In this document: one piece after another, positions 3,953 through 31,392 of the stretch | Numbering within the stretch: the stretch's first letter is position 1 | How the letters are laid out: every line of letters begins with the position of its first letter | Source of the DNA: an uncultured Lachnospiraceae bacterium | GTDB taxonomy: Bacteria > Bacillota > Clostridia > Oscillospirales > CAG-272 | Reading direction: 5' to 3' | Length of the DNA stretch: 34,267 nucleotides | Assembly (NCBI GenBank): GCA_964478105.1 | Contig: CAYZHW010000001.1 | Span: 1 to 34,267 of the forward strand | The notes under the pieces: model-generated | What the model saw: the letters and a program-made list of their open reading frames with translations, nothing else | Databases searched by the model: none | Told to the model about the DNA's origin: nothing | Made by a program: the position numbers and the translations under genes

Positions 3953-5966
3953 GCTTCCCGAACTGCTTGCCCCCGCAGGCTCGAGAAAAGCCATAGAGGC
4001 CGCCGTTTCGGCGGGCGCGGACGCCGTTTATTTCGGCGGAAAAAGCCACAACGCGCGTATTTTTGCCGATAATATAGACGACGGTGAGCTCAAGGACATA
4101 ATATCCCTTTGCCACGCGTACGGGGCAAAGAGCTATATCACGCTTAATACTCTCACGCATTCGCGTGAGCTTGGCGACGTTTTAAAATTCGCGGAACTGC
4201 TTTACCGCTCGGGCGCCGACGCGCTTATTTTAGCAGACCTCGGACTTGCGTCGATGATAAAAAGATACATTCCCGATTTTGAGCTTCACGCGAGCACACA
4301 GGTGTCGGGACATAACACCGACGCGGCAAGAAAACTTGCCGATCTGGGCTTTTCAAGAATGGTGCTGGCGCGTGAGATGCCGCTTTCGGATATCCGATCG
4401 TTTTGCGAGAACTCGCCCATAGAATCTGAAGTGTTCGTGCACGGTGCGCTCTGCGTATCGGCATCGGGACAGTGCCTTTTCTCCTCGCTTGTGGGCGGAC
4501 GGAGCGGAAACCGCGGTGAGTGTGCACAGCCCTGCAGACTCCCTTACACCAAGGGAACTTGCAAAAAACCGTGCTACCCGCTGAGCCTTCGCGACCTCTC
4601 GCTCGCTCCCCACATTCCCGCGCTTATAGATGCGGGTGTGGCGTCGCTCAAGATTGAGGGGAGAATGAAATCCCCCGAGTACGTGCGCGATGTGACGGCG
4701 ATATACAGAACACTGCTTGATGAGCGCCGCGCGGCAAACGCCGACGAGACGGCGGAGCTTGCAAGGATATTCTCCCGCTCGGGATTTACCGACGGATATT
4801 TTACCGGCAAGGTCGGAGCAAATATGCTCGGTGTCCGTACCGAGCGCGAAAAGGCGGAGAGCCGTGAGCTCGTACCTTTTGATAAGATAACGAAGAAGAT
4901 ACCGCTTTTTATGTCGGCGAGCTTCAATATAGGCAGACCCGCCTCTCTTAGAGTGTCGGACGGCAAAAAGAGCGTTACGGTGTACGGAGCTTCTCCTGTT
5001 TTGGCAGAGAATTCTCCGACGCCGAAAGAAAATATTATAAGACAGCTTGCAAAATTAGGGGCGACTCCCTATGAGGCGGCACAAATCGAATGCGAAGCCG
5101 AGGACGGTCTGCTGATACCGCTCTCGAAGATAAACGAGCTTCGCCGAGATGCGCTTGATGCGCTTATGTCCCCCGATATGGCGCGGACAGGCTTTGTTAT
5201 GCGCGAGATCCAAAAAGAGAATAGAAGCACAGAGCGAACAAAAAAGAGAAGCGCGCGTTTCCTCTTTGCAAAAAATCTGCCGTCCGAAGGCGAGCTTGAA
5301 CGGTTTTTTGATATCGTATATCTGCCGCTTGCCGAGATATCGGCAAACAAAAACGGCGCGGTGAACGGTGTGATACTTCCGGGTGTGATCTTTGACAGCG
5401 AGATGCCTGAGGTCGAAAAGATGCTGAAAGCTGCAAGAGGCGCGGGCATTACTCACGCGCTCGTCTCAAACATCGGACACATAGAGCTTGCAAAAAAATA
5501 CGGTTTTATTCTGCACGGCGACTTCAGACTCAACGTGTACAACACCGAGACGGCAAAAACGCTTGAAAGCCTTGGCGTAGAGGATGTTATACTCTCGCCC
5601 GAGCTCTCGCTTGCGCAGAGCCGAGATATCGCCGCAGATGCTGCTGCCGTTGTCTACGGGCGTATTCCTTTGATGTTGCTCGAACGTTGCGTGATCGAGG
5701 ATTGCGGCGAGTGTGGGAAAAATTCATTTACTCTCACTGACAGACGGGGCGTTTCTTTCCCCGTATTTCGCGAATATCCGCACAGAAACGTGCTCTATAA
5801 CAGCGTGCGCACCTATATGGCAGACAGGGCAGACGAGATGACCCGCGCGCGGGTGGGCAAGACACATTTTATTTTTTCGGACGAGAGTGAGCGCGAAGTT
5901 CTCGCCGTCATAGAAGCATATAAAAAACAAAGACAGCCGAAGGGAAACGTTCGGCGGATAAAATAG
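3942..5966 (+). CDS. Peptidase U32 family protein (long form)
   Basis: N-terminus 'ELLAPAGSRKAIEAAVSAGADAVYFGG' plus the U32 signature 'EVFVHGALCVSASGQCLFSS'. The ORF-track start at 3933 is TTG, and the ATG at 3942 gives 'MKAKLPELLAPAG'. It overlaps the end of zapA. Confidence 0.85.
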   Translation: MKAKLPELLAPAGSRKAIEAAVSAGADAVYFGGKSHNARIFADNIDDGELKDIISLCHAYGAKSYITLNTLTHSRELGDVLKFAELLYRSGADALILADLGLASMIKRYIPDFELHASTQVSGHNTDAARKLADLGFSRMVLAREMPLSDIRSFCENSPIESEVFVHGALCVSASGQCLFSSLVGGRSGNRGECAQPCRLPYTKGTCKKPCYPLSLRDLSLAPHIPALIDAGVASLKIEGRMKSPEYVRDVTAIYRTLLDERRAANADETAELARIFSRSGFTDGYFTGKVGANMLGVRTEREKAESRELVPFDKITKKIPLFMSASFNIGRPASLRVSDGKKSVTVYGASPVLAENSPTPKENIIRQLAKLGATPYEAAQIECEAEDGLLIPLSKINELRRDALDALMSPDMARTGFVMREIQKENRSTERTKKRSARFLFAKNLPSEGELERFFDIVYLPLAEISANKNGAVNGVILPGVIFDSEMPEVEKMLKAARGAGITHALVSNIGHIELAKKYGFILHGDFRLNVYNTETAKTLESLGVEDVILSPELSLAQSRDIAADAAAVVYGRIPLMLLERCVIEDCGECGKNSFTLTDRRGVSFPVFREYPHRNVLYNSVRTYMADRADEMTRARVGKTHFIFSDESEREVLAVIEAYKKQRQPKGNVRRIK

Positions 5967-5974
5967 ATCGGAGT

Positions 5975-6092
5975 ACGGTTTTGCGGCTTTTGCCGCAAAA
6001 AGCAGAGCGGCAATTTGCTGCCGCAAACCTGCCCCAATTCCCAAAGAGAAAGGAAGCTTTTGCAAAAGCAAAAGTTATGGTCATAATTATGG
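5975..6092 (+). repeat. Copy A of a 118-nt structured intergenic repeat (three hairpins + SD + start codon) leading into mreB
   Basis: Gap-free hand alignment to 29109-29226 gives 108/118 identical positions. Hairpins are at 5979-6000 (9 bp), 6007-6024 (6 bp) and 6056-6075 (8 bp). 'AAGGAAG' lies just 5' of hairpin 3, and ATGs are at 6077 and 6089. Confidence 0.75.
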
Positions 6093-7096
6093 CAAGAAGC
6101 ATAGGAATCGACCTTGGCACAGCCAATACAATAATCTGCGTCAAAGGGAAGGGTATCGTATTAAGAGAGCCTTCTGTTGTCGCAATAGACTCGCGCTCGC
6201 GTCGGCTCTGCGCCGCGGGCATTGCCGCAAAGCAGATGTGCGGCAAGACACCGGGCGATATAATCGCGTTCCGTCCGATAAAGGACGGCGTTATCGCCGA
6301 CTACCGCATAACTGCGGATATGCTCGAATATTTCTTCCGTAAGATAGGTATGAAGTCTGTCTTTAACCGCCCGAATGTCGTCGTCGCGACTCCCTACGGC
6401 ATTACCGAGGTCGAGAAACGTGCGGTCGAGGATGCCGCGCTTGACGCGGGAGCAAAGTCGGTCGCGCTTATCGAGGAGCCCATCGCCGCCGCTATCGGTA
6501 CGGGACTGCGCGTGGCAGAGGCGAGAGGATGTATGATAATCGACATCGGCGGCGGCACTTGCGAGGTCGCTGTAATAAGCCTTGGCGGCATAGTTATATC
6601 CAATTCGATACGTGTCGGCGGAGATCAGCTTGACGCCGCTATCGTCTCTTACGTAAAGCGTAAGCATAACGTTATGATAGGCGATGCGACGGCTGAAATG
6701 TTAAAGAAGAACATCGGCTCTGTGCACCCTTCGGTCGACCGCGGCGTTATGGAGATAAAGGGCAGAAATCTTATGACCGGACTTCCCGCTATTATAAAGG
6801 TGCGCTCGGACGAGATCCGCGATGCGCTCGCAGAGCCGCTTGAGAAGATAATCGAGTGCATCCGTTCCACACTTGAGACCACGCCCCCCGAGCTTTCGGG
6901 CGATATATTCGATATCGGCATTATGCTTACCGGCGGGTCGGCTATGCTGGGCGGCTTTGACACTCTCATCTCGCAGATAACAGGCACGCGCGTAATGCTT
7001 GCGAAGCGTCCGCTCGAGTCGGTCGCGGTAGGCATCGGACGCGTTATCGAATCGAACGCGTCGTTTAGAGATTTTGTTGATTTCAGGACTCGCTAA
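6089..7096 (+). CDS. mreB: Rod shape-determining actin homologue MreB
   Basis: 'MARSIGIDLGTANTIICV', 'DIGGGTCEVAVISLGG' and 'LTGGSAMLGG' are actin-fold motifs. An alternative in-frame ATG at 6077 adds MVII. The ORF-track TTG at 5981 reads through the repeat and is rejected. Confidence 0.93.
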   Translation: MARSIGIDLGTANTIICVKGKGIVLREPSVVAIDSRSRRLCAAGIAAKQMCGKTPGDIIAFRPIKDGVIADYRITADMLEYFFRKIGMKSVFNRPNVVVATPYGITEVEKRAVEDAALDAGAKSVALIEEPIAAAIGTGLRVAEARGCMIIDIGGGTCEVAVISLGGIVISNSIRVGGDQLDAAIVSYVKRKHNVMIGDATAEMLKKNIGSVHPSVDRGVMEIKGRNLMTGLPAIIKVRSDEIRDALAEPLEKIIECIRSTLETTPPELSGDIFDIGIMLTGGSAMLGGFDTLISQITGTRVMLAKRPLESVAVGIGRVIESNASFRDFVDFRTR

Positions 7097-29001: not shown

Positions 29002-29108
29002 AATTACGCCCTTGATTTTTGTGTTGTTGTATAGTAAAATAATATCATAAATTATAAGAATTTTCAATATTTATCGAAGAGGTCAAGTTTGAAAATAAAT
29101 TTTCAAAC

Positions 29109-29226
29109 ACGGTTTTGTGGCTTTTGCCGCAAAAAGCAGAGCGGCAATTTGCTGCCGCAACCCAGCCTCGATTTCCAAGGAGAAAGGAAGCTTTTGCAAA
29201 AGCAAAAGCTATGGTCATAATAATGG
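29109..29226 (+). repeat. Copy B of the 118-nt structured repeat, leading into the Cys-rich ORF
   Basis: 108/118 identical to 5975-6092. Hairpins at 29113-29134, 29141-29158 and 29190-29209. ATGs at 29211 and 29223. Confidence 0.75.
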
Positions 29227-29945
29227 AACAGATCTATACTATACCCGTAAATGAAGCCTTTGAGGCGTACGAAGCCGACAAGAGCTGCGGCTGTGCTTTC
29301 TGCGCGCTGTACAACAAGCTTGAGGAAAATGAGCTTGAGCTTATCCTCGGAGCGTCGATGATGGAGCCCGATGTGAGAATAAAGACTAATAAAGAAGGCT
29401 TTTGCCCGACTCATTTCGATATGATGTTTAACCGTAAGAACAGGCTCGGACTTGCTCTTATGCTTGAAAGCCATCTGGATGAGCAGAAGGGAAACTTCTT
29501 CCCGGGCGGTGTGTCAGACCTGTTCGGTTCGAGCGCCGACAAAGCGGTCAAAGCGGGAGCGGCTCTTGAAGAGTCCTGCTATGTCTGCGGACGTATCGCA
29601 TACCATTTCGAGCGAATGATAAAAACTGCGGTATGGCTCTGGGAGCGTGACGGCGATTTTAAGAAAAAGTTTGCAGCTCAGCCGTATTTCTGCCTGCCGC
29701 ATTACAGAAAGCTGCTTGAATATGCAAAGAACGAGCTTTCAAAAAAGGATTTTAAGGAATTTTACGCGACAGCAAGCGGGCTTGAGAAGACATACTACGA
29801 GGAGCTCTCGGGAGATGTGAGCTGGTTCTGTAAGAAGTTTGACTACCGCTATGAGAATGAGCCGTGGTATAATTCCAAGGACGCGGTCGAACGCACCGTC
29901 AAGTTCCTTTCGTCCGACATTCACAAGGGTGTAAAAAAACAATAA
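29223..29945 (+). CDS. Cys-rich hypothetical protein (DUF6062-like, putative metal-binding)
   Basis: 'MEQIYTIPVNEAFEAYEADKSCGCAFCALYNKLE...MMEPDVRIKTNKEGFCPTHF', 'CYVCGRI' and 'FCLPHY' form paired Cys/His clusters. An alternative in-frame ATG is at 29211. The DUF6062 assignment is from memory. Confidence 0.55.
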   Translation: MEQIYTIPVNEAFEAYEADKSCGCAFCALYNKLEENELELILGASMMEPDVRIKTNKEGFCPTHFDMMFNRKNRLGLALMLESHLDEQKGNFFPGGVSDLFGSSADKAVKAGAALEESCYVCGRIAYHFERMIKTAVWLWERDGDFKKKFAAQPYFCLPHYRKLLEYAKNELSKKDFKEFYATASGLEKTYYEELSGDVSWFCKKFDYRYENEPWYNSKDAVERTVKFLSSDIHKGVKKQ

Positions 29946-29961
29946 AAAAGGGGGAGAGCGT

Positions 29962-31392
29962 ATGCACGAGCTTATCGTCGGCGGTGCGGGCTCGGGTAAG
30001 ACTGCCGAGCTTGCCTCGCGTTACGAAAAAGAGCAGAACGCTCTCTTTTTGTCGCGCAGGGGTATAACGCCCTACAAATTGGCGCTCGATATCGTCACAT
30101 CCGTCGAGGGAAAGGTGCCCGAGCCCGAGCGGGAGAGCGGCATCGGCGAGAAGAAGAGCTGTTTTTCTTCGCGAAAAGAATATGACGCGCGGCTTGCCGT
30201 CGGCGCGCCCGTTTCGTTTTGCGGCGAGGAGATGAAGAGCTTTGGCGAGACCGACATAGCGAATTTTCTTTTTGAATCAAAGGTGGATTATATCTACGAG
30301 CACCCGTACAAGATCGATACGGCAACCGCTGAGTTTTCGCAATACCGCCCGGATTTTTACCTGCCGGAATATGATATTTATATAGAATATTTCGCGCTTG
30401 ATCGTGACGGCAATGCCCCCGAGCATTTTGCAGACGGGTATGCGGCGTCGGAAAAATGGAAAAAGGAGCTCCACGCGAAAAACAAAACGAAGCTTATCGC
30501 GCTCTACGCCTATGAGCGTGACGAGGGAAAGCTTGTCGACTCGCTAAAAAAACAGCTGAAATGCGGGAAGGTCAAACTGCGCCACAGAAGACGCGGCGAG
30601 CTTTATCCGAAGGGCGCGTCGTATACCGAGCAAAAGGGCGCAGCGGATTTTGCGCCCATATTAAAAAAGGCGGCGGAATATGCAAGGTCGGGTGCGTACA
30701 AGTGCCCGTATTCGCACATCTTTGCCGATGATATCGACCTTTTCGGCGCGGATTGCGCCGAGCTTTTGCGTGCATTGCCTGTGCCCGTCACCGCAAGCGC
30801 GAGAAGCAAGGTCTTCGGCGAAAAGATAACAAGGCTCGATAAAAAATACAGGACGCCGAAATATGATTTTGTTTTCTCGCACACAAAAGACGGTGAGAGA
30901 GCCGAAATGATAAAGCGCCTAACCTCATTTCCCAACGGTGCCGTAGTGTTTATCATCGGAAAAAGAAATGACGATGCGCTTTTGCTTGCGGGAGACTGTA
31001 TATCACTCTCGTACAACCGTGCGGGCGAGTGCGTCAATGTGAAACTGCCCCAAAACAGCGGGGTGCGTGTGTATTACCTTACCGCTTCGCGCGTCGAGGG
31101 AAGCGAGTGCGATCACGCACTCGTGCTTGCAGACACCTTTTCTTACGGGGATGAGCGGGAGTTTGAAACAGCGGTAACACGCGCCAAAAAATCTGTACTG
31201 ATCCTCTCAAAAACGGGAGAGGAGAGTCCGCTTGCAAAGGATCTTCGCGGTTCGCTCGGAGTAAAAGAGAGCAAAAAGGGCTTTGAGTGCCCCAAGTGCG
31301 GCTCGCCGCTTACCGTGGTCAATGGAAAATACGGCGACTTCCTCGGATGTACCAACTACAAGGGCGGATGTGATTATAAAAGGAAAATGTAA
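29962..31392 (+). CDS. Reduced helicase-IV/UvrD-like P-loop protein with nuclease-like insert and C-terminal topoisomerase-type zinc ribbon
   Basis: Walker A 'GGAGSGKTA' at aa 7-15. 'GETDIANFLFESKVDYIYEHPY...YRPDFYLPEYDIYIEYF' is the helicase-IV-type insert. Degenerate motif II is 'IFADDIDLF', and the motif-VI-like segment is 'AVTRAKKSVLIL'. The C-terminus is 'CPKCGSPLTVVNGKYGDFLGCTNYKGGC'. GGGGGAG SD. Confidence 0.65.
   Translation: MHELIVGGAGSGKTAELASRYEKEQNALFLSRRGITPYKLALDIVTSVEGKVPEPERESGIGEKKSCFSSRKEYDARLAVGAPVSFCGEEMKSFGETDIANFLFESKVDYIYEHPYKIDTATAEFSQYRPDFYLPEYDIYIEYFALDRDGNAPEHFADGYAASEKWKKELHAKNKTKLIALYAYERDEGKLVDSLKKQLKCGKVKLRHRRRGELYPKGASYTEQKGAADFAPILKKAAEYARSGAYKCPYSHIFADDIDLFGADCAELLRALPVPVTASARSKVFGEKITRLDKKYRTPKYDFVFSHTKDGERAEMIKRLTSFPNGAVVFIIGKRNDDALLLAGDCISLSYNRAGECVNVKLPQNSGVRVYYLTASRVEGSECDHALVLADTFSYGDEREFETAVTRAKKSVLILSKTGEESPLAKDLRGSLGVKESKKGFECPKCGSPLTVVNGKYGDFLGCTNYKGGCDYKRKM

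Follow-up and report, generated by a model that had tools for sequence, protein, structure and literature searches.

The closest described analogue of the element analysed here is the mycobacterial MIRU. According to a summary (PMC12548453) of the work of Supply et al. 1997, MIRUs are 40–100 bp long and contain a short ORF with a stop overlapping the start codon (-4 coupling); the same summary states that they insert at start codons and that the internal ORF is coupled to the gene. As far as MIRUs are described there, the resemblance lies in the fact that both are small and apparently mobile, both are found at gene starts inside operons in the orientation of the gene, and the downstream gene is still translated. 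On the same basis, the present element is unlike a MIRU in that it has no conserved frame, contains five covarying helices and an SD-hairpin-AUG of its own, shares no sequence with MIRUs and belongs to a different phylum. Small repeats at start codons that rebuild the RBS, as the element seems to do, are also known in the form of the Ssn/SRM hairpin repeats (Chenal et al. 2025, PMC11893778).

Other repeat families share some of these features. The pneumococcal BOX, Neisseria Correia and enterobacterial ERIC elements are similarly modular, with sub-elements gained or lost, and are co-transcribed with their neighbours and folded. However, they occur in either orientation and at a variable distance from genes, and Correia and ERIC have terminal inverted repeats, with a TA duplication in the case of Correia, none of which applies to our element. 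The IS200/IS605-derived palindrome elements and REP/RAYT have in common with it the lack of terminal inverted repeats and target duplication, the hairpins near the ends and the single orientation. On the other hand, a conserved left-end target of 4–5 nt is not apparent in the element, there is no associated Y1 transposase, and REPs lie after genes while the element lies in the SD-ATG spacer. Finally, genes 25 and 38 of phage T4 have split translation initiation regions in which SD and AUG, approximately 20 nt apart in the sequence, are united by a hairpin. Judged by the geometry of its sequence, the element may be comparable, as its SD and AUG are separated by a similar distance with an intervening hairpin; the T4 cases are, in contrast, single fixed gene leaders and not repeated mobile cassettes.

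The window, i.e. the whole stretch of DNA that was analysed, is 34,267 nt long and contains two copies of the element on the forward strand. An earlier note on this DNA had described them as a repeat of 118 nt, and this observation is confirmed: positions 5975–6092 and 29109–29226 align without gaps and in the same orientation, with 109 identical positions out of 118 (the note had counted 108). The differences accordingly number nine and not ten; six of them fall within the linker (6027–6045), and those in stems are at 5984 (C/U) and 6075 (U/C), both as described. The two copies terminate in ATGGTCATAAnnATG, where the final ATG is the start of either mreB (Pfam MreB_Mbl) or a DUF6062 gene; the downstream genes are unrelated, as the note had said. 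The full unit does not start at the position corresponding to 5975 and 29109, as had been assumed. When the copies are aligned with their flanks, its true start is found approximately 24 nt further 5', and the perfect palindrome at 29087–29108, which had been taken for a separate operator-like site, is in fact hairpin P0 of the element.

Copy A (5975–6088) lacks P0 and was delimited by BLAST and by a match to the covariance model R1 (5961–6091, 78 bits). The native SD of mreB, GGAG, is still present at 5970–5973, with the element now lying between it and the mreB ATG. The helices that covary across the family are located at 5979–5987/6031–6039 (P1), 5990–5996/6007–6013 (P2) and 6014–6018/6023–6027 (P2b). 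The 3' module, read from the sequence at 6045–6091, consists of the extended SD AGAGAAAGGAAG (6045–6056), P3 (6056–6063/6068–6075), AUG1 (6077–6079), the tail GTCATAATT and AUG2 (6089–6091), which is the mreB start; the MreB_Mbl match begins at residue 4 of the ORF starting at 6089. In this copy the native GGAG also lies 7 nt upstream of a TTG at 5981, from which a frame is open through the element into mreB (ORF 5981..7096), and initiation at this TTG would give MreB 36 additional residues.

Copy B is full length (29085–29222; covariance model R1 match 29085–29225, 109 bits) and is preceded by GAAGAGG, the native SD-like sequence of the DUF6062 gene (29076–29082). It begins with AAG (29085–29087), followed by P0 (29087–29096/29099–29108), P1 (29113–29121/29165–29173), P2 (29124–29130/29141–29147) and P2b (29149–29152/29157–29160). 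Its 3' module (29179–29225, from the sequence) contains the SD GGAGAAAGGAAG (29179–29190), P3 (29189–29197/29202–29210), AUG1 (29211–29213), the tail GTCATAATA and AUG2 (29223–29225), the start of the DUF6062 protein. This protein is Cys-rich, and in the region 29223–31392 its gene is followed after 16 nt by a 476-aa ORF that the earlier note called a P-loop protein.

The repeat is not limited to these two copies. The assembly from which the window comes (G000; 1.75 Mb, 249 contigs, 74% complete) contains 15 clear copies, found by searching the assembly, and two degenerate ones detected with the covariance model. The full element is about 138 nt long, with sizes ranging from about 110 to 160 nt, and its 5' end consists of AAG plus the perfect hairpin GTTTGAAAAT-AA-ATTTTCAAAC (29085–29108 in copy B, absent in copy A). 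The G000 copies are 92–96% identical to each other, apart from two more distant ones (84–89%). Four copies are shorter since the 28 nt between two GCCGCAAA repeats are missing, and with them P2 and P2b. All G000 copies with an assembled 3' end are co-oriented with the downstream gene and end at its ATG; contig C140 terminates within its copy. As to the degenerate copies, G000:C174:3112-3248 is a junction-only copy located downstream of a gene, in which P2b has changed to TTCGGC/GCCGAA, while in G000:C35:3474-3605 P0 is gone and ATT has taken the place of AUG1, with SD, P3 and the gene ATG retained.

Comparison of copies from different genomes shows a conserved order, i.e. P0, a three-way junction (P1, P2, P2b), a linker, AGAAAGGAAG, P3 and YAUGGUCAUAA-NN-AUG. 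P0 is a hairpin of 9–11 bp that covaries across genera (GTTTGAAAGAT/ATCTTTCAAAC, GTCTGAAAAAT/ATTTTTCAGAC). P1 is formed by UUUUGUGGC paired with GCCMCAAWW, P2 is rather variable in sequence with its pairing always kept, P2b is UUUUGC-NNN-GCAAAA, and P3 is GCUUUYGC paired with GCRAAAGC. In a MAFFT alignment of 41 copies, 87.5% of the cells are paired as compared to 31–48% when the partners are slid by 1–3 columns, and both-sided changes are seen at 18 pairs. The values for 117 matches are 88.3% against 32–48%, with both-sided changes at 41 of 42 pairs, in an alignment that was fitted to the covariance model and hence leans toward it. None of 500 shuffles reached the observed percentage of paired cells, the number of both-sided pairs or the covariation score in either alignment. 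The element is thus shown to contain five covarying helices. G-U pairs (104) are not in excess of A-C mismatches (129), therefore the data are silent on whether the fold was selected as RNA or as single-stranded DNA.

This family-wide fold differs in part from the one proposed earlier for the window copies. The three hairpins of the note do constitute the minimum-free-energy fold of both copies (z approximately -3.8 versus shuffles), and the third is identical to P3. The first two, however, are not covarying pairs across the family: they are confined to the G000 subfamily and cannot be formed in other genera. The conserved three-way junction is built from those pairings that had been considered alternative. 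The switch-like arrangement, in which segment 1 could pair with either of two partners, is likewise restricted to the G000 subfamily, with no covariation support in other genomes.

The element is shown to be non-coding, because copies with lengths of every class modulo 3 occur and there is no fixed point at which the upstream frame ends. The frame starting from the 5' TTG or CTG occurs in all three phases with scattered stops in the 76 full copies among the matches listed. A peptide-coding reading was rejected, as the frames are unconserved and variants with 28-nt deletions exist. The same data bear on a MIRU-type relay, in which translation would start at the native SD with the UUG of P0, run along a short frame through the element and stop before the ATG, followed by reinitiation. 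The long form in G000 is compatible with such a relay, having a TTG 6–7 nt past the native SD and a 45-codon frame that ends with TAA 2 nt before the ATG; the frame stop is at -5 in 15 of the 76 full copies listed, and MIRUs are described as acting in this manner in PMC12548453, as far as that source goes. But the YTG frame is found in all phases, CTG replaces TTG in 24 copies and TTA replaces it in two, there is a shift of 28 nt in the four short copies of G000, and the start codon would be buried in a stem of 9–10 bp. We consider the relay highly improbable.

A few other known functions were considered for the fold. A terminator or attenuator was rejected as there is no U-run directly at the P0 or P3 stem. 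An internal promoter was dismissed as well, since a match to TTGCAA-N16/17-CATAAT is present in the G000 subfamily only and is unconserved. The element does not qualify as an integron attC site, as its core sites are in the wrong order and the genes concerned are housekeeping genes in conserved synteny. No Rfam 15 family matches the window at gathering score (in the note, the repeat had not been recognised as a known riboswitch class), and the best sub-threshold Rfam matches of three diverse copies scored 12–18 bits with E above 1.

The 3'-module pattern was scanned in one genome per species, which gave at least 109 stretches, and 130 distinct copies were extracted from the matches listed. Collecting loci by this pattern inflates the apparent conservation of the 3' module. 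The stretches (at least 109) are all in MAGs labelled Oscillospiraceae, Eubacteriales, Clostridia or Candidatus Flemingiibacterium, and those listed originate from the gut of human, goat, deer, yak and horse. An ATG is found 3–24 nt past AUG1 in 127 of the 130 copies listed, the distance from AUG1 to AUG2 is exactly 12 nt in 104, the two are in frame in 114, and an ORF of at least 60 aa follows the element directly in 123. The 3' end of the element is approximately 2 nt before the gene ATG. On the other side, an SD-like 4-mer is found no more than 14 nt upstream of the element in 66 of the 76 full copies (20% at random positions), mostly 1–4 nt before the conserved AAG in these copies, which are those among the matches listed. 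A co-directional ORF ends at most 150 nt upstream in 60 of the same 76, and in nine of the 76 the upstream gene terminates at the TGA within the AAGTYTGA of the element. An SD before the element, an ATG after it and a co-directional ORF upstream together show that it occupies the spacer between the native RBS and the start codon, often within operons. At the left junction only AAG is conserved (about 90% AA before G), and the preceding position is variable.

The genes at these sites have little in common. The downstream proteins of the 130 listed copies form 119 clusters, and in G000 they include MreB, Era, Fmt, Hsp33, PRTase, a PfkB kinase, DUF362 and DUF6062 proteins, i.e. unrelated housekeeping or unknown proteins. 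This is of importance for the idea that the element is a transposable regulatory RNA, in which binding of a metabolite or protein to the junction would control access to the adjacent SD, so that the recipients would join one translational regulon. Several features are in line with this idea: stem covariation is strong, P1, P2b and the junction bases are kept across genera while P2 is wholly changed, many copies have a UUCC just past P1 that is complementary to the GGAA of the SD, and the orientation is strictly that of the mRNA. Nevertheless, the target genes have no shared function, their sites are unconserved between sister species, and the UUCC/GGAA pairing is missing in several subfamilies. 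The junction is also dispensable, since 12 copies consist of P0 and P3, 23 of P3 only, and four G000 copies are without P2 and P2b; in addition there is neither a G-U excess nor an Rfam match. We therefore regard a regulatory RNA as rather improbable. Compared to a riboswitch or a dedicated leader, the element has the covarying structure, but not the coherent set of genes or the conservation at orthologous sites, and it is not a switch dedicated to mreB.

Indications of mobility come from the only other genome of the genus, G001, which we searched with the joined flanks of 13 copies from G000. A comparison was possible at eleven sites, ten of which are empty in G001, the two flanks being contiguous there. 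These are the sites at mreB, DUF6062, hsp33, fmt, era, a gene on contig C15, the PfkB kinase, PRTase, a PHP-like gene and a short-chain dehydrogenase-like gene on contig C3. For the remaining site, on contig C21, the upstream flank alone was matched. Without the element, the mreB site of G001 reads GGAGATAGAT-ATG and the DUF6062 site AAGAGGACGAAAT-ATG. At the era site, the sequence is GAGGTAAAAGAATG in G001, where the ybeY stop overlaps the era start, and GAGGTAGAAG[TTTGA...CATAAT]AATG in G000, where the ybeY stop is now inside the element. The flanks are approximately 80% identical between G000 and G001, as opposed to 92–96% among the G000 copies themselves, and because of this low flank identity the exact boundaries were derived from spacer lengths and not read to the base. 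The G001 spacer lengths are best explained by an insert between AAG and NN-ATG, in which case AAG would be native or target sequence. Closer pairs of filled and empty sites were sought without success: an exact-protein look-up of MreB and a scan of JGI metagenomes with 43-mers of the G000 type gave no match, and identity is only about 70% in the genus of G167.

Terminal inverted repeats were not found on comparing the first 35 nt with the reverse complement of the last 35 nt (mean local score 5.5, shuffles 5.6), and four boundary models applied to 69 copies revealed no excess of 2–4 nt repeats that would indicate a target-site duplication. In comparison to classical MITEs, the element thus has dispersed copies with presence/absence polymorphism (15–92 per genome, as in G000 and G017), but not the terminal inverted repeats and the target duplication. 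An explanation for such ends might be that the hairpins act as single-stranded-DNA signals for transposition, either by an IS200/IS605-like (HUH) system or by another one that recognises hairpins, and that the RNA fold is a by-product. The missing repeats and duplication are as expected in this case, and so are the hairpins near both ends, which are kept even in forms with internal deletions (P0 plus P3, 12 copies), the fixed orientation, the short conserved AAG at the left junction and the fact that G-U is not favoured over A-C. On the other hand, there is no association with a Y1 transposase, a target of 3 nt is too little to explain the SD-ATG specificity, and the best-conserved part is the RBS and not a cleavage site, although the conservation of the 3' module is inflated by the collection pattern. 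We see this as a possible explanation, but a doubtful one.

The search for a mobilising enzyme or a parent element did not yield a candidate: neither a transposase nor a parent was found. Y1 transposase (PF01797) was detected in 14 of the 46 genomes with the element and in 45 of the 105 without it, and was not found in G070, G088, G160 and G164. Several genomes rich in copies are also without the other enzymes considered: IS110 transposase was not found in G000, G017, G070, G088 and G160, nor reverse transcriptase in G000, G017 and G070. Unlike the start-codon elements with a small GIY-YIG parent, the present element has no such parent that we could find; the search for small GIY-YIG genes was negative in G070, G088 and G160, and G017 has one that is not flanked by the element. 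With regard to parts or larger forms of the element, all palindromes listed in a search for orphan P0 hairpins in G017 are inside model matches except one (loose and probably due to chance), no split 5' and 3' modules were found in G000, no long variants exist among the 109 loci listed, and no recurring ORF follows the 3' module in the 130 listed copies.

The element is modular, also in its decay. Out of 117 model matches, 50 have all four hairpins, 23 have P3 only and 12 have P0 and P3; low-copy genomes mostly contain the 3' module alone. An example is the ruvB copy of G001, which consists of the 3' module only and starts 13 nt past the ruvA stop, full copies being present at ruvB in two other genomes. 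We infer that old copies shed the 5' part and keep the 3' module. Retroposition with 5' truncation, which the P3-only copies brought to mind, was rejected since the high-copy genomes have almost exclusively full-length copies and G000, G017 and G070 contain no reverse transcriptase. AUG1 is ATG or GTG in 72 of 77 full copies; in copies without P0 it is ATG in 43 of 53 and ACG in the other ten. As AUG1 is ACG in 14 of the 130 listed copies it is not indispensable. AUG2 is retained almost always.

Two loci have unusual arrangements of the 5' part. On the minus strand of L182 (G162:C3:96300-97200), three tandem 5' parts (P0 plus three-way junction) occur without the SD-P3-AUG module, after a terminator-like hairpin and not ahead of a gene start. 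In L075 (6520–6800) there are two head-to-tail copies, the second of which begins on the ATG that ends the first and has no 3' module. The 5' arm of P0 starts with ATG in the subfamily to which this locus belongs (ATGAAAGAC/GTCTTTCAT), and a complete native RBS is found further downstream.

The distribution of the element is wide and patchy. G017, a 97% complete genome of 2.3 Mb from another genus, has 92 copies and G167, a Flemingiibacterium MAG, has 32. In the family sample, the covariance model has matches in 46 of 151 genomes and 37 of 97 genera, and in the order sample 8 of 30 families are positive. Three viral contigs in IMG/VR each contain a copy. One of these, on the minus strand of L229 (9540–9810, IMGVR_UViG_3300045988_188352), lies between two phage tail genes; its P0 and junction are unchanged, but it has another P3 (GTTTTTGCGGC/GCCGCAAAAAC), GAAAGGAGG as its SD and no ATGGTCATAA tail. 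The different P3, SD and tail of this copy mean that the 3' module exists in several kinds. Our searches of a paper library found no description of the element.

Three readings had been offered earlier for the repeat, a structured 5' leader, a riboregulator and a REP/MITE-like mobile leader. The many copies, the empty sites in the sister species, the unrelated downstream genes and the patchy spread over genera and families support the mobile leader, while our results give no sign of a regulatory (switch) function. Nor is the element a plain selfish repeat, the case that had been named as a refutation, because its orientation and position are non-random and its stems covary strongly. In our opinion it is probably a non-autonomous structured mobile element of uncultured Oscillospirales-type Clostridia and a few phages, which supplies a replacement RBS to the genes it enters.

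The following mechanism can be proposed for such a replacement. Insertion would shift the native SD to approximately 135 nt from the ATG and thereby orphan it. As the native SD is moved so far away, translation would then depend on the 3' module of the element, with its SD, AUG1 and AUG2 being the signals predicted from the sequence. This module is made up of the long SD AGAAAGGAAG, directly followed by the 8–9 bp hairpin P3 and, after 1–2 nt, by an in-frame AUG. AGAAAGGAAG would pair with 8–9 nt of the 3' end of 16S rRNA, if the latter is, as we presume from general knowledge of Bacillota, of the usual type (the region is absent from this MAG). P3 may draw the SD and AUG1 together so as to form a split initiation region, by analogy with the T4 leaders. 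The product would either be extended at its N-terminus by four residues (MVII in both window copies) or start at the native AUG 12 nt downstream. P0, which comes right after the orphaned SD, would bury a UUG or CUG at start-codon distance, and might also provide a UGA stop for upstream genes that formerly overlapped the start. The 5' part as a whole (P0 plus three-way junction) most likely serves mobility or RNA stability and not the host gene. Going one step further, there is a small chance that placement is due to a mechanism which recognises the translation initiation region (SD, spacer, ATG) without any known class of transposase, or that the junction is a sensor through which every gene receiving the element joins a transposable translational regulon.

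If the replacement-RBS explanation is true, selfish DNA would have a little-known means of altering translation signals while sparing the essential genes it enters, such as mreB, era, fmt and ruvB. The 92 copies of G017 lie immediately upstream of genes, which we estimate at about 4% of all genes of this genome; if translation is driven by the module of the element, the RBSs of those genes derive from a mobile cassette. The relic copies suggest that the hosts retain the donated RBS long after the remainder has decayed. Insertion as precise as this (approximately 2 nt before the ATG), for which no known transposase can be named, suggests that targeting follows a mechanism not yet described. In practical terms, gene callers will misplace starts (as in the MVII extensions), and motif hunters will take copies for gene-specific riboswitches. 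The SD-hairpin-AUG module, in turn, may be a portable, context-insulated initiation region for the engineering of Clostridia.
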